NCBI RefSeq assembly: GCF_029504745.1
Contig: NZ_JAQFIQ010000064.1
Coordinates: 1-10,745, forward strand
Direction: 5' to 3'
Length of the DNA stretch: 10,745 nucleotides
From: Breznakia sp. PF5-3
Lineage (GTDB): Bacteria; Bacillota_I; Bacilli_A; Erysipelotrichales; Erysipelotrichaceae
Shown here: positions 1 to 10,537 of the stretch, piece after piece
Layout: every line of letters starts with the position of its first letter
Position numbering within the stretch: position 1 is the first letter of the stretch
The notes under the pieces: model-generated
Told to the model about the DNA's origin: nothing
What the model saw: only the letters and a program-made list of their open reading frames with translations
The model's database searches: none
Made by a program: the position numbers and the translations under genes

Positions 1-3000
1 TACTGTAATTGCTACTTTTGATCCATCCACTGTACTACTTGCTTCCGCTTTCGCTAAGTCTATTACTTTCGCATTATTTAATCCTGCTACTTCTTCTTTA
101 CTAATTGCAAAATCATTTGCTCCTATTCGTTCTTTATTCGTTGGATTTTCTTCTATAGAATCTTTTACTGTTACCTTTACAGTTTTGCTTACTGCTGATG
201 CTCCACTTCCATAACTATATGTTACATTATAACTTCCTAGTGTTCCTGCTTTAATTGTTGTAAAAGTCATCGCTGTTACTACTGGTGTTGGATTGCTTCC
301 ATCTGCACTTGTTACTTTTGCATCATTTACTGTAATTAATGCTTCTTTGTTTGCTAATGCTTTCGCTTCAGCTACAGAAATAAATGCGTCTTTTGCACTA
401 AGTGCATTTGATCTATCATTTGATATTTCATTTTCATCTGCTACTACTGTTACTTTTACGGTAGTACTTTTTAAACCTGTGCCACTTCCATAACTATACG
501 TCACATTATAGCTTCCTAGCGTTCCTGCTTTAATTGTTGTGAAATCACTTGCTGTTACTACTGGTGTTACACTTGTTCCACCTGCTGTCGCTGTTGCACT
601 GTTAACATTTATCAATGCTTCTTTATTTGCCAATGCTTGTGCTTCACTTACTTTTATAATTGCATCTTTTGCATTTACTGATGTTTGGCTTCCATCATCT
701 GTTATCGTTACTACTACACTCTTTTCTACTAATGTAGCTCCACTTCCATAACTATAATTTAAGGTTACTGTTTTTGCTGTTGTCGCATTTTTTACTAATG
801 CATATTCAGTATCACTTAATTTTGGTTTATCTGTTGTTCCATCTACTTTTGTTACAACTGCTTTTGTTGCATCTAATAATGCATCTTTATTTGCCAATCC
901 ATTTGCTTGTGTTAATGTTAATGTCACATTTTCTGCATTTAATGAATTCTCTCCATTTGTTTTTGCATCATCTGCAATTACTGTCACCTTTACTGTTTTA
1001 CTTACAGCTGATGCTCCACTTCCATAACTATATGTTACATTATAACTTCCTAGTGTTCCTAGTTTGATTGTTGTAAAAGTCATCGCTGTTACTACTGGTG
1101 TTGGATTACTTCCATCTGCACTTGTTACTTTTGCATCATTTACTGTAATTAATGCTTCTTTGTTTGCTAATGCTTTCGCTTCGCTTACTTTAATAAATGC
1201 ATCTTTTGCACTAAGTGCATTTGATCTATCATTTGATATTTCATTTTCATCTGCTACTACTGTTACTTTTACGGTCGTACTTTTTAGAGTTGCTCCGCTT
1301 CCATAACTATACGTCACATTGTACGTTCCTAGCGTTCCCGCTTTAATTGTTGTGAAATCACTTGCTGTTACTACTGGTGTTACACTTGTTCCACCTGCTG
1401 TCGCTGTTGCACTGTTAACATTTATCAATGCTTCTTTATTTGCCAATGCTTGTGCTTCACTTACTTTTATAATTGCATCTTTTGCATTCACTGATGTTTG
1501 GCTTCCATCATCTGTTATCGTTACTACTACACTCTTTTCTACTAATGTAGCTCCACTTCCATAACTATAATTTAAGGTTACTGTTTTTGCTGCTGTCGCA
1601 TTTTTTACTAATGCATATTCAGTATCACTTAATTTTGGTTTATCTGTTGTTCCATCTGCTTTTGTTACAACTGCTTTTGTTGCATCTAATAATGCATCTT
1701 TATTTGCCAATCCATTTGCTTGTGTTAATGTTAATGTCACATTTTCTGCGTTTAATGAATTCTCTCCATTTGTTTTTGCATCATCTGCAATTACAGTTAC
1801 TTTTACAGTTTTACTTACTGCTGATGTTCCACTTCCATAACTATATGTTACATTATAACTTCCTAGCTTTCCTGCTTTGATTGTTGTAAAGTCACTTGCT
1901 GTTACTACTGGTGTTGGATTACTTCCATCTGTACTTGTTACTTTTGCATCATTTACTGTAATTAATGCTTCTTTGTTTGCTAATGCTTTCGCTTCGCTTA
2001 CTTTAATAAATGCATCTTTTGCATTTATTGCTTTTGTTTTATCTGGTGATACTTCCCAACCTTTGTCTAACACGACATATGTTTTTGCTTTCGTCTCAGT
2101 TAAATTTGTTCTTGTGTCTTTTAATGTATAACTTACTACATATGTTCCAGGACTACTTGTATTAATTGCTGTCGTTGGTGAGTAAGTTAATTTCAAATTC
2201 GTAGGATCGCTTGCCAAAGAAAGTAAACTACTTCCATCATAAGTTTTTCCTTTAAGTCCATCTCTTAAATTTATTGTTGCACTTCCATATTCAATAAACA
2301 CCTTTTCTACACCTACATTCAATGTAGGGCGTCCCACCACTTTAAACTGTGCACTTGTTGATGTTATTGGGTCAAAAGGCATCTGTCCAAAGGTTGCTAC
2401 CTCGGTAATTGTTGTTTGACCATTTCCTACATCTGGTGCTGTCATTTCATAAGTAAATGCGGTCTTTCCTGAATTTACATTTGATGCACTTAGTGGTACT
2501 ACTAAATTGTTGGAAATATCAGTTGTATTGTATGCATTAACATTGTTAGTTATACTAGTTCCGTTTGATTTTGGATTATTTCCAGTAAAAAGATTTCCTT
2601 CGCTATCTTTTAATTGCTCAATACGCGTATTTGCATTAATAGTTGCTAGTGCTGTACTACTTACTGTTGTCAACTCATGTTTCACTTGAATCGTTTCATT
2701 AGGGTATGCAAAACTTGTTGTTGTATTTACTTGTGTCTCAAAAATCCCATCCTTATTTCTATCAGCCCAAAATGATGTAGCATCATGAGTAGGTGGCCAA
2801 TCTGTATAATATGTAGAATTGAAAGTAAGCGACGCAGTTCCTACCGGTGTAGAAGTACCATCTGGATGTACTTCTGGAACCCAGCTACTCATAGCAAAAT
2901 ATACATTTTTATAATCGGATCCAAATACAGTTTTACCTCCAATAGAATAGATTCTTTGAAATCCCCCTATACTTACTGTCAATTGACCATCGCCTGTTTC

Positions 3001-4002
3001 TGGATTAGTACACACAAAATTCATTTTAAAATCTTTTGCGTTACTGCCTCCCACAACGTTTCTCTCATAACTTTCACCACTTATTGGTTTTAATACACTA
3101 TGGGTTGTACCCTTCATATAATATCCATAAACCCCATTACCAAAAGCACTAGTTGAATAAGCAGAATCTAGGGTAAACATTGCATTCCACAATAATCCAT
3201 TTGGCATTTGTGATTGATTTATATTTGACAAAGTATAACCATTTTGTCTTTCCACAGTATATAAGTTTTTATCTACCATCCCTGTGTTATACATGATGTG
3301 ACCTGCTGTTACTTCTTTATTAGGGTTTGTATGTAATGCAAAACTAACTCCATCTGCTTCTGCTGCAGTAAACGTTCCTTCAATTACAAAACTACGTGAA
3401 AAATCTAAGGTAAACTTTGAATTTACTAATCCTGCTGTATATTTGGAAAAACTTATTGTGTTCCCATTGATAAATGGAGAATTTGTATCTTCTGATTTTG
3501 ATATTTTAAATGCTTCAGATAAGCCTCCTGAAGAGAATGGTGTGACTAATTTTGTCATCACATCTGTCGAAACTTGATCTGACTTTTCTTTTTGTACTGA
3601 TTGAATATTATCTACTTCTACACTAATTGTCGTATCTAATTTTTCATATCCATCGTCAGATGCGTTTTCTTCACTATCTCCTGCTTTATTTATTTTTTTT
3701 ATATAACTTACATTAAAGTTAAATGTTCCGTTTTCATTTGCCTCATAAGTAGGATTACTCAAATCAACTTGCACACCTAAGTCATCTTTAATTGCAACAA
3801 TTTCATACATTGTTGTATCAACATCAGATAAATCAAAGTTGATTGATGCCTTCGTCTTATCATCACTGTACTCAACGTCACTGCGTATCTGTGGTATATT
3901 TTCATTTTCATTTGCTACCACATTTGAATACAAAGATGAAACACTTGTAATTCCTATCATGAAAGCAATTAAAACTTTCGTAAATTTACTAATTTTTTTC
4001 AT
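1..4002 (-). CDS. Large secreted / cell-surface protein, 5'-complete and 3'-truncated by the window edge (at least 1334 aa): signal peptide, N-terminal beta-rich region, ConA-like (L-type lectin-like) domain, unassigned beta region, DUF5011-like Ig domain, then Big_3-like Ig repeat array. Putative lectin adhesin.
   Basis: Absent from the supplied track, presumably because no stop lies inside the window. I read every + strand triplet in phase 1,4,7... from 1 to 4002 and none is tta/cta/tca, so the minus frame is open throughout. ATG is at 4002..4000, AGAAAGG at 4016..4010 (7 nt upstream), and an in-frame TAA at 4020..4018. The N-terminus MKKISKFTKVLIAFMIGITSVSSLYSNVVA/NENEN looks like a Gram-positive signal peptide. 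The translation is non-degenerate and domain-like along its whole length. The C-terminus (any LPXTG or other anchor) lies outside the window. Confidence 0.88.
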   Translation of the reverse strand, partial: MKKISKFTKVLIAFMIGITSVSSLYSNVVANENENIPQIRSDVEYSDDKTKASINFDLSDVDTTMYEIVAIKDDLGVQVDLSNPTYEANENGTFNFNVSYIKKINKAGDSEENASDDGYEKLDTTISVEVDNIQSVQKEKSDQVSTDVMTKLVTPFSSGGLSEAFKISKSEDTNSPFINGNTISFSKYTAGLVNSKFTLDFSRSFVIEGTFTAAEADGVSFALHTNPNKEVTAGHIMYNTGMVDKNLYTVERQNGYTLSNINQSQMPNGLLWNAMFTLDSAYSTSAFGNGVYGYYMKGTTHSVLKPISGESYERNVVGGSNAKDFKMNFVCTNPETGDGQLTVSIGGFQRIYSIGGKTVFGSDYKNVYFAMSSWVPEVHPDGTSTPVGTASLTFNSTYYTDWPPTHDATSFWADRNKDGIFETQVNTTTSFAYPNETIQVKHELTTVSSTALATINANTRIEQLKDSEGNLFTGNNPKSNGTSITNNVNAYNTTDISNNLVVPLSASNVNSGKTAFTYEMTAPDVGNGQTTITEVATFGQMPFDPITSTSAQFKVVGRPTLNVGVEKVFIEYGSATINLRDGLKGKTYDGSSLLSLASDPTNLKLTYSPTTAINTSSPGTYVVSYTLKDTRTNLTETKAKTYVVLDKGWEVSPDKTKAINAKDAFIKVSEAKALANKEALITVNDAKVTSTDGSNPTPVVTASDFTTIKAGKLGSYNVTYSYGSGTSAVSKTVKVTVIADDAKTNGENSLNAENVTLTLTQANGLANKDALLDATKAVVTKADGTTDKPKLSDTEYALVKNATAAKTVTLNYSYGSGATLVEKSVVVTITDDGSQTSVNAKDAIIKVSEAQALANKEALINVNSATATAGGTSVTPVVTASDFTTIKAGTLGTYNVTYSYGSGATLKSTTVKVTVVADENEISNDRSNALSAKDAFIKVSEAKALANKEALITVNDAKVTSADGSNPTPVVTAMTFTTIKLGTLGSYNVTYSYGSGASAVSKTVKVTVIADDAKTNGENSLNAENVTLTLTQANGLANKDALLDATKAVVTKVDGTTDKPKLSDTEYALVKNATTAKTVTLNYSYGSGATLVEKSVVVTITDDGSQTSVNAKDAIIKVSEAQALANKEALINVNSATATAGGTSVTPVVTASDFTTIKAGTLGSYNVTYSYGSGTGLKSTTVKVTVVADENEISNDRSNALSAKDAFISVAEAKALANKEALITVNDAKVTSADGSNPTPVVTAMTFTTIKAGTLGSYNVTYSYGSGASAVSKTVKVTVKDSIEENPTNKERIGANDFAISKEEVAGLNNAKVIDLAKAEASSTVDGSKVAITV
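166..2025 (-). repeat. In-frame tandem repeat, period 813 bp (271 codons), about 2.3 copies. Each unit encodes three different ~83-94-aa Big_3-like Ig domains, each with a YSYGSG core, giving the order 1-2-3-1-2-3-1.
   Basis: The shadow ORFs in the supplied track recur at an exact +813 offset: 774..1067 vs 1587..1880, ends 751 vs 1564, ends 493 vs 1306, starts 1064 vs 1877. Direct comparison of 241-300 with 1054-1113 gives 4 mismatches in 60. Homology fades left of ~166 and right of ~2025. Approximate copy boundaries are 2025-1213, 1212-400 and 399-166. Confidence 0.9.
2070..2330 (-). other. DUF5011-like bacterial Ig-like domain of the surface protein
   Basis: RPTLNVGVEKVFIEYGSATINLRDGLKGKTYDGSSLLSLASDPTNLKLTYSPTTAINTSSPGTYVVSYTLKDTRTNLTETKAKTYVV follows the pattern P-x-I/L-x-x-G ... 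hE-x-G-S ... D-G ... GTY-x-V-x-Y-x-h-x-D ... h-x-V-x-V typical of these domains. Confidence 0.5.
2800..3545 (-). other. ConA-like / L-type (legume-like) lectin domain of the surface protein (about 248 aa, boundaries approximate)
   Basis: The translation FSSGGLSEAFKISKSEDTNSPFINGNTISFSKYTAGLVNSKFTLDFSRSFVIEGTFTAAEADGVSFALHTNP...NAMFTLDSAYSTS...LTVSIGG...VYFAMSSW fits the remembered L-type lectin pattern: F-x-F-x-F/I strand followed by xDGhxFhh, then a later hhEFDT-like strand. Length also fits. Assigned from memory of the family, not from an HMM. Confidence 0.5.
3913..4002 (-). other. Signal peptide of the large surface protein (about 30 aa)
   Basis: MKKISKFTK (basic n-region), VLIAFMIGITSVSSL (hydrophobic core), YSNVVA|NE (A-x-A-like cleavage context). 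The cleavage site is approximate. Confidence 0.7.
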
Positions 4003-4291: not shown

Positions 4292-5569
4292 TTAATCAAT
4301 ATTGATAACGTATCGTTCATAATTCCCTGCAATATTATACACATATAGTTCAAGTATCCCATTAAAAGGCCCTTTGATTTGATGATCATTTGATAAACTC
4401 TCTTTCTTTTGGTCATGAACATAATAAGATTTTTCATAATCAATTTTAATATCGTCAATAATATCAAATGTAAGTACATTATTTTTATACTTAATATTTT
4501 CTAATTTTGGCTCATCACGATAAATATTTGTAATCTTTATCGTCTTGTAATCTTCTTCAGTTGAAACTATATATGTTCCATTTTCATTCACAATAAAACT
4601 AATATAGTTTTCTTTTTTATCGCGGATATTCAAACTTTCTCCATCTTTATTTTTTATTTTAACTTGTTGTCTTGCAACTGGTTGATTAAAATACGCGTAT
4701 ACAATTACATCTTGATTTGTTAAAGCTGTATCATAGGTAATAGTCTCTAACATAAGACTGATATCTTCACTTTGATTTGTATAATTATAATAAAGTATCC
4801 CTGCTGTTGAAAACACGCCCAACGCAAGGAGCGCTCTCCCTATTTTTTCAGTAATTGAAACAATCCCCATCTTAGCTGAACTTGGTAATGCTTTTTCGGT
4901 GATTAATCCAAAAATAAACTTACTTTTATCCGCTGGCATTGAAATATTTTCCACCATGTAGGAAAAAAACTGAAAATACATTAATGGAAATACAATATTC
5001 ATGTTCTTTGTTGTCAGCCCCTTTTTATATAAATCTGGTTTAATCATATCGCGTACGATTTTTAACCTTGTTTTTACTGTACCCTCTGGCATCTGCATAA
5101 CTTCAGCTATTTCTTTGACACTTAAATCATCAAAATATTTTAATTTTGCAATTTGTTCATAATTAGTAGGCATCTTTGCAAATTCTGTAGCTATGGTGTT
5201 CCATATTTCATTGCGATTAAATAAAGTAGCTGAATTTTCTTTATTTTCAAGTGTATCAATGATTCCATCATCACTATATGTCTGTTTTAACGTTCTACTA
5301 TTTTTTCTTAAGATTTCAATAATTTGTCGATATGCAACTGAAAAAAGCCATGAATGAAATGCAGAAAAATTATTGAGTGTATGAATTTTTGTGTATACTT
5401 TAATAAATGTTTCTTGAACAACCTCTTCTGCGTCTGCATTGTTTTTTAAATATGAAACAGCAAAATAATATATTGTTGATTCATAGTGTGCATAGATTTT
5501 CTCAAAAGCTTTCTGATCCCCTTTCATTAACTGCAATACAGTTTCATCTTCAATCTTTTTTGTTTTCAT
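4292..5569 (-). CDS. ECF-family (sigma-70 group 4) RNA polymerase sigma factor fused to a C-terminal extension with a transmembrane helix and a ~165-aa beta-rich domain (membrane-tethered, one-component sigma)
   Basis: 425-aa ORF with GAGGG 9 nt upstream of the ATG. Residues ~1-90 match sigma region 2 (DQKAFEKIYAHYESTIYYFAVSYLKNNADAEEVVQETFIKVY...FHSWLFSVAYRQIIEILRK). Residues ~125-178 match region 4 (PTNYEQIAKLKYFDDLSVKEIAEVMQMPEGTVKTRLKIVRDMI). A clear TM segment IGRALLALGVFSTAGILYY covers residues 243-261 (nt 4787-4843). Residues 262-425 have a beta-sandwich-like composition. No HxxxCxxC zinc anti-sigma motif is present. Confidence 0.85.
   Translation of the reverse strand: MKTKKIEDETVLQLMKGDQKAFEKIYAHYESTIYYFAVSYLKNNADAEEVVQETFIKVYTKIHTLNNFSAFHSWLFSVAYRQIIEILRKNSRTLKQTYSDDGIIDTLENKENSATLFNRNEIWNTIATEFAKMPTNYEQIAKLKYFDDLSVKEIAEVMQMPEGTVKTRLKIVRDMIKPDLYKKGLTTKNMNIVFPLMYFQFFSYMVENISMPADKSKFIFGLITEKALPSSAKMGIVSITEKIGRALLALGVFSTAGILYYNYTNQSEDISLMLETITYDTALTNQDVIVYAYFNQPVARQQVKIKNKDGESLNIRDKKENYISFIVNENGTYIVSTEEDYKTIKITNIYRDEPKLENIKYKNNVLTFDIIDDIKIDYEKSYYVHDQKKESLSNDHQIKGPFNGILELYVYNIAGNYERYVINID
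4787..4843 (-). other. Transmembrane helix within the sigma-factor fusion protein
   Basis: Nineteen uncharged hydrophobic residues, IGRALLALGVFSTAGILYY, preceded by EK and followed by the acidic/polar NYTNQSEDIS. A weaker aromatic hydrophobic patch, IVFPLMYFQFFSYMV (residues 192-206), leaves the topology formally ambiguous. Confidence 0.7.
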
Positions 5570-5729: not shown

Positions 5730-7592
5730 TTATTTTGCTTTCACTTTTATCCAAAGCTCAGCTAATACCTTTTTCATTTTCTCATTATAGTTAAAGATTT
5801 CATCTTTTTCATATCCGCTACGAGGAATATAAGCACTGTTCCCTTTAAACTCATTATTTGCTAATTTTTCTCTTACCTTTTCTACACTTGATGTATAGCC
5901 TACATAAGCAGAATTGCCTTCTGCTACACTCTCTTCAAGATTGTAGTTAATATATTCCTCAGCTAGTAAAGGACATGTACTATTCTTAGGAATTACCATT
6001 CCATCTGACCATAGATTTGTCCCTTCTAATGGTTCAAAATATTGCATCTTAGAATTTTCATCATGGATATAAGCAGCATCGCCACTATAAACAACAGCAA
6101 TATCCTTTTCACCATTGATCATTCCATCAATAACTTCATCTGTGACAATAACTGGATTATTTTCTTTCAACTCTTTAAGCCATTCATAAGCTTCATTGAT
6201 TTCTTTCTCATCCGTTGTATTCATAGAATATCCCAATGCTTTCAATGCCATCATGAAAGAATCTCTTTCACTATCATAAACATATATTCTACCCTTATAC
6301 TTAGGATTTTTTAAAACATTAAACCCTTCTTTTTCAACATCTTCTTTCTTCACTGTTTCACTATTGTAGATAATTCCTACACTTCCCCAAAAATATGGAA
6401 TACTATATTCATTTTTAGGGTCATAAGACAAATTCAACACTTCAGAAGATAATCCACCATAATTGGTAATATTTTTTAAATCAATCTTTTTCAACATGTC
6501 TTCTTGAATCATTCTTTCTATCATATAATCTGATGGAATTAATACATCATAACTCTCTCCACCTAACAGTTTTGTATACATTTCCTCATTGGAAGCAAAA
6601 ACAGAATAATTTACAGTTACATTATATTTTTCTTCAAACCCTGAAATTGTGTCTTCTCCTACATACTCCCCCCAATTAAATACATTTAACGTATTACAAC
6701 CATATTCTTTGATTGGATCTATCTCACTTGAAGCATTTCCTCGCAATGCATTCAATCCAGCAATCCCCAATCCTAAAACAATCGCTGAAATTACAAACAC
6801 ATGACGATATGATCGATTGGTATATCTCTTTTTTCGCATAGACACAAGGTTCACCACAACAAGAGCAACTGTAATAAATAGGACTATGATAGTTGATAAA
6901 GAGTTAATCGTTGGATTTACCCGTTTTGACATTGTATACACCATTATTGAAATATTATTAACGCCTTTTCCGGTTACAAAATAAGAGATAATAAAATCAT
7001 CAAATGACATTGTAAAAGCAATCAATGCTCCTGCTACAATTCCAGGCATCAATTGAGGTATCACTACTTTGCGAAGTGCATAAAAAGGGGTAGCTCCCAA
7101 ATCCATTGCAGCCTCTGCTAAATTTGGATCTAAACGTCGTATTCGTGGCATAACACTTAGCATCACATAAGGGATACAAAAAATAATATGAGATAAGAGT
7201 AAAGTGAAAAAACCTTTTTCAATATGTAATGAAGTAAAGAATAACATCAATCCAATAGCGGTAACAATCTCTGGATTCATAATTGGTAAATTATTGATTT
7301 GTATTACAATCTCCCGTAATATTTTCTTTGATCTTGAAAGTCCAATACTAGCCAATGTTCCAACAATCGTTGATACAACAGTTGCAATAATTGCAATCAA
7401 CAATGTATAGTAAATCGATTCCAGCATTGTCTTATTAGCAAACATTTGCTCATACCAACGAAGTGAAAATCCTGTAAACTTTGATAATGACTTAGAACTA
7501 TTAAAAGAAAAGAACATCATATATATGATAGGTAAATAAAAGAAGACAAGCATTCCACCTAAAAAGATTTTTGATCCAATTCGCTTTTTCAT
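5730..7592 (-). CDS. potCD: Spermidine/putrescine ABC transporter permease PotC fused to the substrate-binding protein PotD (620 aa)
   Basis: Residues 1-~255 form a six-TM permease with the EAA loop EAAMDLGATPFYALRKVVIP. An extra TM, HVFVISAIVLGLGIAGLNAL, covers residues ~263-283. Residues ~296-620 are PotD-like (NVFNWGEY..., YDVLIPSDYMIERM..., IPYFWGSVGIIYN..., LWSDGMVIPKNS...). The start overlaps the potB stop (TAATG). Confidence 0.85.
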   Translation of the reverse strand: MKKRIGSKIFLGGMLVFFYLPIIYMMFFSFNSSKSLSKFTGFSLRWYEQMFANKTMLESIYYTLLIAIIATVVSTIVGTLASIGLSRSKKILREIVIQINNLPIMNPEIVTAIGLMLFFTSLHIEKGFFTLLLSHIIFCIPYVMLSVMPRIRRLDPNLAEAAMDLGATPFYALRKVVIPQLMPGIVAGALIAFTMSFDDFIISYFVTGKGVNNISIMVYTMSKRVNPTINSLSTIIVLFITVALVVVNLVSMRKKRYTNRSYRHVFVISAIVLGLGIAGLNALRGNASSEIDPIKEYGCNTLNVFNWGEYVGEDTISGFEEKYNVTVNYSVFASNEEMYTKLLGGESYDVLIPSDYMIERMIQEDMLKKIDLKNITNYGGLSSEVLNLSYDPKNEYSIPYFWGSVGIIYNSETVKKEDVEKEGFNVLKNPKYKGRIYVYDSERDSFMMALKALGYSMNTTDEKEINEAYEWLKELKENNPVIVTDEVIDGMINGEKDIAVVYSGDAAYIHDENSKMQYFEPLEGTNLWSDGMVIPKNSTCPLLAEEYINYNLEESVAEGNSAYVGYTSSVEKVREKLANNEFKGNSAYIPRSGYEKDEIFNYNEKMKKVLAELWIKVKAK

Positions 7593-8416
7593 TACGAATC
7601 ACCACCATTCTTATCTAAGCGTTTCGTTAGATACATAGATACCATAATCAAAAGTGCCATGATTAAAGAAATTGCACTTCCAAAATTCCAATCTCCTGTC
7701 GAAACAAAATAGTTTTCAATCAGATTTCCAATTAGCAATTGTCCTCCCCCCAATAATTTTGGAATAAAGAAACTACTAACTGCTGGTAAGAATACAAGGG
7801 TAATTCCTGAAATCACACCTGGCAAGGACAATGGGAAAATAACTTTTTTAAATGTTTCAAAAGGAGTAGCTCCTAAGTCACTACTTGCTTCCAACAAACT
7901 TTTATCTAGTTTTGCCAAAGATGAATGAATTTGAAGAATCATAAATGGTAGAAAGTTATATACCATTCCTAAAATCACTGCAAATTCAGTATGAATCATA
8001 TGAACTTTTCCAACCCCAAAAAAACTTAAAATATTGTTGATGACACCATTGTCATTTAAAATGCCAATCCATGCATAAGTACGAACAAGCATATTAATCC
8101 ACATTGGTAATGTTATCAACAAAATAAAGAAACCATTGTGTTTTACATTCATTTTTGAAATTAGATATGCTGCTGGATACCCAATTAAAATACAGATTAC
8201 AGTTGTAATTAGAGCGATTCGAAACGAATCAATTAATACACCTAAAAATACATTATCTTGAAAAAAACGAATGAAATTCTCAAAAGTGAAATGAAATGTC
8301 ATAACATCATTTCCTTGTGAAGTAAAAGCATAAAGCAAAATTAATAGCATTGGTACAACCAAAAAAATACTAATCCATATAACATATGGTTGTATGAGTT
8401 TTTTATAACTTTTCAT
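7592..8416 (-). CDS. potB: Spermidine/putrescine ABC transporter permease PotB (274 aa)
   Basis: Multi-TM permease with the EAA loop EASSDLGATPFETFKKVIFP. Position between potA and potC. The ATG lies 1 nt after the potA stop. Confidence 0.85.
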   Translation of the reverse strand: MKSYKKLIQPYVIWISIFLVVPMLLILLYAFTSQGNDVMTFHFTFENFIRFFQDNVFLGVLIDSFRIALITTVICILIGYPAAYLISKMNVKHNGFFILLITLPMWINMLVRTYAWIGILNDNGVINNILSFFGVGKVHMIHTEFAVILGMVYNFLPFMILQIHSSLAKLDKSLLEASSDLGATPFETFKKVIFPLSLPGVISGITLVFLPAVSSFFIPKLLGGGQLLIGNLIENYFVSTGDWNFGSAISLIMALLIMVSMYLTKRLDKNGGDS

Positions 8417-8417
8417 G

Positions 8418-9989
8418 TTAGAACCCCATTTTTTCCATCACATGGATATCTTCTGGATCAAAATCAATTCCTACATGTGTATCAACAGTTGCATTTCTAG
8501 TTGTATGAATTTTAAACTCTCTACCTATTGTTGAAAACGATACAATATATTTTCCTGGTGTTAGTTCATCAACATCAAAATCATAATCAACATTTCTGAC
8601 TTCAATATCTTCATCTGTATCCAAATTCCAACTTACCGCATCTGCCCAAGTTCTCAAATCTGTATCCAACGCTTGGCTTTCCTGAATTTCATCTAGGGTA
8701 GTAAAAAAATCAAAAGCTGCAATCCCAATCCGCTTCTTTTCATCTGTTACATATTTTTGCTTTACCACAAAAATATCAACTTGAATCTTAGTACCTTTGC
8801 TCGTTGAGAAAGTAACTGGATAAGTTCCTGCTTCTGCTTTTATATCATACTCTATATTGGCAATCGACAAATAATCTTCACTTTCCGCATCCCATGCCTG
8901 TGCATCTGCTCTAGCGATAATATCGTCATCATTCAATTCTTCTAAATCTTGAATATCTAAATAGAAATTATTTGCTGATATGTATTCACCTGCTTCTTCA
9001 TTATATATAGGTTTCTTTTCATACACAGTCAATGTGACATCAACATGGCTTCCTCTCGATGTTTCGACAATAATTTCATTGTGCACGCCCTTAAACAAAA
9101 CAGATAATACTTTCCCATTCAATTTTCCTTTTCCCTTTTTCACAATATCTATATCTTCAGGACGAATCACAATATCAACATCTTCATTCTTTTTAAATCC
9201 AAAATCAACACATTCATAGTTATGCTCATCAAAAGCAACTAGATAATCTTCTTTCATGATTCCATCAATAATATTACTATCCCCAATAAAATTTGCCACA
9301 TATTCGTTTTCTGGCTCATTATAGATATCAGTTGGTGATCCAACTTGTTGGATTTCTCCATCTCTCATGACAACAATTTTATCTGACATTGTTAATGCCT
9401 CTTCTTGATCATGCGTCACATAGATAAACGTTATTCCTACTTCTTGTTGAATCTTTTTAAGCTCTAATTGCATTTCTTTTCTCAACTTTAAATCAAGTGC
9501 CCCTAAAGGTTCATCCAATAGCAAAACCTTTGGTTCATTTACAAGCGCACGAGCAATAGCAATACGTTGTTGTTGCCCACCAGAAAGTTGATCGACATTT
9601 CTCTCCTCGTACCCTTCCAAGCTTACTAGCTTCAACATTCTTGTAACTTTTTGACGAATAACATCATCACTCATTTTTTTGATTTTTAAGCCAAATGCTA
9701 CATTATCATAAATATTCATATGTGGAAACAATGCATATTTTTGAAATACGGTATTGAGTTCTCTTTTGTATGATGGAAGCTTTGAAATTTCTTCATTATC
9801 AAAAACAATACTGCCTTCATCTTGTTCCAAAAAACCTCCAAGAATTCTAAGTAATGTGGTTTTACCACAACCTGATGGTCCTAGTAAAGTTACAAATTCA
9901 TTTTCATAAATATCCAAATTAATACCTTTAAGAACCAATGTATCATCAAAGTTCTTAACGATATTTTTAAACTGTATCAATTTTTTCAT
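8418..9989 (-). CDS. potA: Spermidine/putrescine ABC transporter ATP-binding protein PotA with a ~175-aa insertion in the C-terminal TOBE domain (523 aa from the preferred start)
   Basis: Walker [10 protein letters not shown], signature LSGGQQQR, Walker B LLLDEP, H-loop VTHD. TOBE-like strands follow: [11 protein letters not shown]...[18 protein letters not shown]...[16 protein letters not shown] prefer the start at ATG 9989..9987 ([10 protein letters not shown]...) with GAGAGGA 8 nt upstream. The track start at 10031 would overlap the upstream gene by 28 nt and has no RBS that I can see. Confidence 0.88.
8487..9017 (-). other. Insertion in the PotA TOBE domain made of two tandem ~75-85-aa Ig-like (Big_3-like) repeats
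   Basis: Repeat 1 (~8763-8987): [73 protein letters not shown]. Repeat 2 (~8499-8732): [77 protein letters not shown]. Shared columns: ADA-x-x-W, D-x-x-x-x-N-[IV]-[ED]-YD-[IF], G-x-Y-x-V-[TS]-FST. Confidence 0.6.
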
Positions 9990-10003: not shown

Positions 10004-10537
10004 TTAAAAATTTGGTGGCGAAATAATCCATAGAATTTCTGCTGTTCTATCTCCTTTATTTTTTAAATAATGGGTATGCTTCCCATTCAAATAAAATGTT
10101 TCTCCCTTATTCATCTTTTCTATTTTGCCACCATTTATTAGTTCTATTTCTCCATTTAAAACAAAGCCAAACTCTTCACCCTCATGTGGTTCAATCGGTG
10201 AAGATTCTGCATTCGGTGCTAACTTTAATATAATTGGTTCCATATCATTCTTTTGTGCGTTAGGAACAATAAACTTCGTGGTGGCACCATCTTTTTCATT
10301 AATATAGTAATCATCCTCGCCAAAGACAAAACGAGTATTCTTTTCCTCTTTAAAAAATTCACTTAAATTGGTTCCTAGTGCTTCCAATATATCTTCTAGT
10401 GTTGCAATAGAAGGAGAAGTAAGATCACGTTCTAGCTGACTTAAAAAACCTTTGGTAAGCTCACTTCGAGCTGCCAATTCTTCTAATGTTAAGTTATTTT
10501 TAGTTCTCAATTCTTTAATTTTTAAGCCGATATTCAT
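10004..10537 (-). CDS. XRE-family HTH + cupin-domain transcriptional regulator (PuuR-like architecture), first gene of the pot operon
   Basis: The N-terminal [54 protein letters not shown] is a typical HTH_3 motif. The C-terminal [44 protein letters not shown] is a cupin motif. AAGGAG precedes the ATG. The stop at 10006..10004 lies 14 nt before the potA ATG. Confidence 0.85.

Follow-up and report, generated by a model that had tools for sequence, protein, structure and literature searches.

Two surface-protein repeats inserted in the regulatory domain of the polyamine-transport ATPase PotA of Breznakia and other Erysipelotrichales

The PotA protein of a Breznakia potA-potB-potCD polyamine importer carries within its TOBE regulatory domain an insert of 177 residues composed of two repeat units and their linkers. 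By sequence comparison, these units are homologous domains of a repeat found in large bacterial surface proteins, placed in a different cellular context. The gene lies on the minus strand (positions 8418–9989; 523 aa plus stop) of a 10,745-nucleotide stretch of DNA from Breznakia sp. PF5-3 (contig NZ_JAQFIQ010000064.1), referred to here as the window; Breznakia is a genus in the Erysipelotrichaceae. The open reading frame (ORF) reaches an upstream ATG at 10031 (537 aa), and residue numbers refer to this 537-aa ORF unless stated, the NCBI start being its Met15. The identity of the gene as potA is established by NCBIfam models that it passed for Mycoplasma-type PotA (NF043075, 563.4 bits, cut-off 550) and potA (TIGR01187, 374.6 bits, cut-off 355.6). 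Its product is 100% identical over 523 aa to the deposited Breznakia sp. PF5-3 'spermidine/putrescine transport system ATP-binding protein', and deposited homologues are annotated merely as ABC transporter ATP-binding proteins. Energizing polyamine uptake, with inhibition by spermidine, is the function predicted for the window protein.

Insertion within the TOBE domain

Apart from the insert, in which the novelty lies, the gene is an ordinary potA. It shares the ATP-binding cassette (ABC) core and its motifs, a TOBE-type domain and an operon with potB, potC and potD with PotA of the PotABCD systems of E. coli and of the Mycoplasma type. The ABC nucleotide-binding domain (NBD; 9282–9989, minus strand) gives a complete match to Pfam ABC_tran (residues 34–176, E 9e-38), and the Walker A motif (GPSGCGKT), ABC signature (LSGGQQQR) and Walker B motif (LLLDEP) are intact in the translation. 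The first part of the TOBE regulatory domain follows (9018–9281, minus strand; TOBE_2 at residues 288–334), modelled by AlphaFold2 (AF2) at a predicted local distance difference test score (pLDDT) of 81–88, then the insert (residues 339–515; 8487–9017, minus strand; net charge about −22), and then the last TOBE strands (8421–8486, minus strand), which yield a complete TOBE_2 domain once the insert is removed.

The boundaries of the insert were defined by in-silico excision of residues 339–515 (window positions 8487–9017), which joins residue 338 to residue 516. In native PotA, TOBE_2 (PF08402) matched only at profile positions 2–48 of 76 (31.7 bits, gathering score 21); after excision, the match covered positions 2–76 of 76 and the score rose from 31.7 to 35.8 bits. 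The TOBE domain is thus complete but split by the insert. The structure of E. coli PotA (8Y5F/8ZX1, 378 aa) leads to the same position, with its chain colinear from residue 9 to 356 with residues 10–347 of the Breznakia protein; beyond this part, E. coli PotA has approximately 22 residues, compared with 190 in the window PotA. Similarly, NF043075 (341 positions) was matched in two separate stretches, and the insert is absent from the profile. Where E. coli PotA and this model have a short connection, the Breznakia protein has 177 extra residues that form two extra domains. An earlier reading of the window from its sequence alone had proposed an intact ABC core and TOBE strands interrupted at 8487–9017, and both the architecture and the insertion point are borne out by the Pfam matches, the colinearity with E. 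coli PotA and the excision. The final segment (VDTHVGIDF...IHVMEK) was predicted as strands (pLDDT ~80) in the full-length AlphaFold model only and was disordered in a model of the insert alone, as expected for a segment that returns into the TOBE barrel.

Repeat units and predicted fold

Unit 1 comprises residues 348–424 (8760–8990, minus strand) and unit 2 residues 433–512 (8496–8735, minus strand); the latter is further from the surface repeats and better kept among PotA orthologues. The two are significantly similar to each other, both by BLASTP (E 2e-8, 29% identity) and by hhalign comparison of profiles built from 81 orthologues (probability 98%, E 2.4e-13), so that the internal repeat proposed by the sequence-only reading is real and its unit boundaries are essentially those given there. 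In the AF2 model of the insert (pLDDT 80 overall, ~85–95 within the units and ~90 in unit 1), each unit consists of six or seven strands and a pair of short helices that follows strand 3.

The 'Ig-like' (immunoglobulin-like) fold of the units is plausible on these models but not proven. Foldseek comparison of the insert model with the PDB returned as top matches only bacterial surface beta-sandwich domains, the best being the Big_3 domain 2KPN (E 6.8e-3, probability 0.99, template modelling (TM) score 0.49) and the others Rib (6S5X, TM 0.51), ZmpB INT domains and domain II of the S-layer protein SlpX (7QFJ); none of the PDB matches reached E ≤ 1e-3. Neither Pfam nor NCBIfam gave a significant match when the insert, its units taken singly and a set of 26 unit sequences were scanned. 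Hints below significance came from PF16403 (E 0.067–0.16, 12–14 bits, under the gathering score of 27), from Big_3 (PF07523, which matched one of the 26 units at E 0.044) and from MBG, and a sequence search of the PDB with the unit profile gave a single match at chance level. A Big_3 label by sequence was therefore rejected, and the Ig-type assignment made in the sequence-only reading draws on weak fold matches (best E 7e-3, TM ~0.5), with no significant sequence match to Big_3 or PF16403. Big_3, Rib, SlpX domain II and PF16403 are the best, though weak, matches in fold; none of them matches the PotA units significantly in sequence, and unlike them the PotA units have two short helices between strands 3 and 4.

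A family of surface-protein repeats

When 1.84 billion cluster representatives were searched exhaustively with HMMER and a 77-position profile of the unit, 491 protein clusters matched at E ≤ 1e-3, of which 81 reached E ≤ 1e-30. Giant proteins of 1,000–6,700 aa with up to 36 copies of the unit headed the matches; in one of these (P0241), 34 stretches matched the PotA-unit profile with a score of 1286 bits. Among the 146 proteins newly returned within the 150 best-listed matches, about 30 were PotA or fragments of PotA and 102 were proteins that lack a Walker A motif and are 600 aa or longer. Crude tests by pattern assigned a hydrophobic and basic C-terminal tail to 63 of the 102 and a signal-like N-terminus to 69. 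An LPXTG anchor was confirmed by Pfam in P0243, the unit co-occurs with Bact_surface_Ig-like and adhesive pectate-lyase-like domains in P0250, and Listeria-Bacteroides repeats are present in P0306. Members with a name belong to Breznakia (for example MDF9838263.1 and WP_346780369.1), with strain PF5-3 itself among the sources, and to Culicoidibacter (C. larvae WP_138189976.1). Judged by sequence, the unit outside PotA is confined, among the matches listed, to large proteins, many of which have predicted secretion or wall-anchoring signals.

One link between the two contexts is a Breznakia surface-protein fragment (P0246), which aligns with the PotA insert by BLASTP over 163 residues (E 2e-20, 35% identity) across unit 1, the linker and unit 2, with identities of up to 44% for a single unit. 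More broadly, the repeat of the sortase-anchored giant surface proteins of Bacillota and Actinomycetota is clearly homologous to the PotA units, with identities that reach 45% for a unit. A signal peptide and a wall anchor are absent from PotA, which has only two copies of the unit. Compared with the surface repeats, its copies are cytoplasmic, embedded in another domain and much more acidic (−10 versus −4) and carry PotA-specific invariant residues, and in unit 2 the last strand of the surface family is replaced by the return into the TOBE domain.

The window itself holds a member of the family, a gene for a large secreted surface protein (1–4002, minus strand) that has a signal-peptide-like start (MKKISKFTKVLIAFMIGITSVSS) and runs off the window edge. 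The PotA-unit profile matched this adhesin with E 3e-13 over six domains. The best match in the window is its last, truncated unit (1–135, minus strand; ERIGANDFAISKEEVAGLNNAKVIDLAKAEASSTVDGSKVAITV; i-E 3.4e-7), the closest relative of PotA unit 1 in the window, a near-identical copy of which (two substitutions at the start) is repeated in P0246. The other three adhesin unit types are only distant relatives, with an hhalign probability of 87% for PotA unit 1 and no match for unit 2. The likeness between PotA and this adhesin, on which the sequence-only reading had drawn, thus holds at the level of the profile and for the truncated unit, but most of the adhesin repeats are distant. The adhesin gene contains a super-repeat of ~813 nt with three unit types of ~90 aa in near-identical copies, and because of these copies the region is prone to assembly collapse. 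Seven plus-strand ORFs at 293–2131 are shadow ORFs of the adhesin repeat and not genes.

Distribution and conservation

A genome scan using one genome per GTDB species located at least 103 loci, of which 80 were retrieved, almost all from the Erysipelotrichales. The insert was present and potA intact at 506–529 aa in each of the 80 retrieved species genomes. The genera represented include Breznakia, Merdibacter, Amedibacillus, Massilimicrobiota, Sharpea, Eggerthia, Faecalicoccus, Holdemanella, Faecalibacillus, Catenisphaera, Bulleidia, Dubosiella, Faecalibaculum, Thomasclavelia and Faecalitalea, among others. Gene order is also kept, with potB and potC in 83 of 83 loci, potD in 82 and a PuuR-like gene upstream of potA in 77.

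The NBD had a mean pairwise identity of 85% among 81 orthologues, the TOBE core 71%, unit 2 70% and unit 1 62%, and the linkers were variable (35–53%). In unit 2, 31 of 78 columns are at least 90% conserved. The ratio of nonsynonymous to synonymous substitution rates (dN/dS) of the insert within Breznakia was ~0.1–0.2 and similar to that of the TOBE core, a value that is indicative only, as dS is saturated (≥ 1). The insert is under purifying selection.

Several loci depart from this pattern in their number or labels. Erysipelotrichaceae bacterium OPF54 (BQKD01000001.1) has two copies of the whole operon, at 2.76 Mb (L075) and 2.88 Mb (L078), ~113 kb apart and with equal identity values to the window. 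Seven loci (L017, L021, L026, L046 and L069–L071) with both operon and insert are labelled Lachnospiraceae, Angelakisella, Bacteroidaceae, Segatella copri or Tannerellaceae; these are probably mis-binned or mislabelled contigs, the alternative being horizontal transfer.

It should be noted that the length of the protein can be obscured by search method and assembly. A word-indexed search with the insert alone missed even the identical full-length protein and returned only fragments of fewer than 320 aa, and the idea of a split gene that this raised was rejected, as intact proteins of ~506–545 aa occur in the genomes and in the full-length search, where hundreds of homologues of 523–545 aa were found. 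A split potA does occur in one locus (L001, 5256–6846; GCA_011262095.1), where a 257-aa ORF for the ABC part and a 281-aa ORF for the TOBE domain with the insert share 29 nt; the cause is a frameshift in a metagenome-assembled genome (MAG), and none of the other 80 genomes has such a split. Longer 'PotA' architectures (P0122 with 683 aa, P0145, P0146, P0346 and P0307) were set aside as chimeric or internally duplicated metagenome assemblies.

These assemblies, together with the frameshifted MAG, are what could be said for the insert being an artefact, whether a potA/adhesin assembly chimera, a frameshifted annotation or a mobile or intein-like element. The same in-frame architecture with intact ORFs of 506–529 aa is, however, found in isolate genomes of many genera, among them Breznakia, Holdemanella, Faecalitalea, Sharpea, Eggerthia, Bulleidia and Dubosiella; the exact window protein is present on two independent Logan contigs, composition is uniform and there are no intein or transposase features. 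An artefact is therefore exceedingly improbable and was rejected.

Origin and changes after capture

The resemblance of the two PotA units to each other had been read from the sequence as an internal duplication. The units are homologous, but the duplication is unproven: surface repeats drawn at random from different proteins are as similar to each other (28% identity) as the two units are (27%), and the alignment with P0246 is colinear across both. The best surface-repeat matches average 45% identity for unit 1 and 39% for unit 2; both units thus have closer relatives among the surface repeats, and a recent internal duplication was rejected as unproven. As the similarity between the units does not exceed that of random surface repeats, and a colinear surface protein exists, the capture of two adjacent repeats appears, on sequence comparison, at least as likely as the insertion of one unit followed by its duplication. 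The further suggestion that the insert arose by domain shuffling from adhesin genes is strongly supported, since among the matches listed the unit occurs elsewhere only in large, mostly surface-type proteins.

Combined, these comparisons suggest a single capture of a two-repeat piece of an adhesin gene, in an ancestor of the Erysipelotrichales, with later use of the piece in the cytoplasm. The closest curated PotA model (Mycoplasma) is without the insert, in keeping with a gain at the base of the order or close to it. Following capture, both units would have become strongly acidic, and unit 2 would have gained invariant polar and aromatic residues specific to the lineage. The net charge per PotA unit is −10.8 ± 1.6 and −9.9 ± 2.0, compared with −3.9 ± 3.5 for 666 surface units, and the charge of the regulatory region is about −11 per monomer without the insert and about −34 with it. 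The core residues of the family (E2, I4, A6, F9, A28, A30, G55, Y57, V59, T60, F61, T63 and G66) are kept in both PotA units. At a further 18 positions, unit 2 has residues conserved to at least 90% in PotA and rare in the surface repeats; these cluster in the helices (FNFFKT.DEI.ES.ALDTDLKTWA), in DYDFDP and in the last strands (GREFK.HTT).

Gene context

All of the genes of interest in the window are on the minus strand, in the order PuuR-like regulator, potA, potB, potC-potD fusion, extracytoplasmic function (ECF)-type sigma factor and adhesin. The potB permease (7592–8416) is an ORF with a match to Pfam BPD_transp_1 and is syntenic in all 83 loci. It is followed by the equally syntenic fusion of the permease PotC and the substrate-binding protein PotD (5730–7592), identified by NCBIfam matches to both. 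The two form one 620-aa ORF whose top NCBIfam match is the Mycoplasma fusion MMSYN1_0195, and PotC and PotD are adjacent and in the same order in nearly all of the 83 related loci. Upstream of potA, the PuuR-like gene (10004–10537) encodes a regulator with helix-turn-helix and cupin domains (NCBIfam PuuR, E 1.7e-21, below cut-off) and shares 28 nt with the start of the potA ORF, including its first ATG. On its similarity and position, its product is a candidate polyamine-responsive repressor of the pot operon.

The ECF-type sigma factor (4292–5569; 425 aa) has its sigma domain at approximately residues 1–185, after which some 240 further residues form an extension that contains a hydrophobic segment (RALLALGVFSTAGILYY). 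The gene is flanked by the pot operon on one side and the adhesin gene on the other and was found only in contigs of the window strain itself; its product may be a sigma/anti-sigma-like fusion in control of the adhesin.

Possible functions of the insert

Regulatory domains at the same position and of the same fold as the TOBE domain interrupted here are present in MalK, MetN (C2) and ModC, where they bind partner proteins or mediate trans-inhibition in type I ABC importers, and we know of none with an inserted Ig-like tandem. The roles proposed here for the insert, sensing of substrate in the cytoplasm or docking of a regulator, are modelled on these domains. In E. coli, a cryo-electron microscopy study found the PotA regulatory domain to be extensively negatively charged and proposed that the transporter is held inhibited by cytoplasmic spermidine bound to this domain (PMC11414716). 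In the best explanation of the Erysipelotrichales insert, to which we assign a probability of about 45%, the captured adhesin repeats would form an enlarged acidic module for polyamine sensing and feedback. Under this explanation, whose functional part we infer, the insert would raise the net negative charge of an already acidic regulatory domain approximately three-fold and would sense polycationic polyamines in the cytoplasm and mediate feedback (trans-)inhibition by them, with the bound polyamine holding the two regulatory domains, and hence the ATPase dimer, inactive. The case for sensing derives from this tripling of negative charge and from the conserved aromatic and acidic patches that the insert adds. 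Several points weigh against it: the acidity could alternatively reflect adaptation to the cytoplasm or general solubility; the proposal of spermidine binding in E. coli is itself unproven (PMC11414716); the invariant residues specific to unit 2 include basic K, R and H, which fit a protein interface equally well; and in the full-length AF2 model the NBD is poor, the alignment there being shallow and low in diversity.

The main rival is a protein-docking platform, in which the two Ig-like domains would bind a cytoplasmic partner such as the PuuR-like repressor or another regulator. Ig-like repeats are typical protein-binding modules, and the 18 invariant positions of unit 2 combine mixed charge with aromatic residues in two helices and the last strands, as for a specific interface. 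The regulatory domain of MalK binds MalT and EIIA-Glc, and by analogy the PuuR-like repressor would be the obvious candidate partner, its gene lying directly upstream of and overlapping the potA ORF in 77 of 83 loci, so that transporter activity could be coupled to transcription. Six loci, however, have the insert but no adjacent PuuR-like gene, and docking does not need the acidification of both units; overall, this alternative seems unlikely. The insert could also be a structural passenger that stabilizes or spaces the regulatory dimer, or whose loss would unfold the TOBE domain, with no role specific to a ligand or partner. Its position in a loop between TOBE strands of an otherwise ordinary TOBE core would suit such a passenger, as would the variable linkers and the conservation of unit 1 below that of the core (62%). 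Conservation of unit 2 equal to that of the TOBE core, the dN/dS of ~0.1–0.2, the many invariant polar residues of surface type, the consistent acidification across 81 species and the lack of any loss of the insert in 80 species argue against it, and make a passenger quite unlikely. In its most general form, the proposal is that the acidic tandem is a new allosteric accessory module for ABC importers, captured at the root of the Erysipelotrichales and acting either as a polyamine brake or as a dock that sequesters the PuuR-like repressor; put this broadly, it is speculative and somewhat doubtful.

Significance

To our knowledge, the regulatory domains of ABC importers form a small and well-catalogued set (TOBE-like, C2 and CBS) in which an Ig-like tandem insert is undescribed, and a literature search found no description of such an insert in PotA. 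The insert provides a clean, datable case of an extracellular adhesin repeat reused within a cytoplasmic enzyme, and its units define a large family of surface-protein repeats without a representative in Pfam, NCBIfam or the PDB. The insert marks an entire order of abundant gut commensals, Holdemanella, Faecalibaculum, Dubosiella, Thomasclavelia and Faecalitalea among them, whose uptake of polyamines matters in host-microbe metabolism. Should the insert act in feedback inhibition, it would offer a direct handle on how PotA senses cytoplasmic polyamines.

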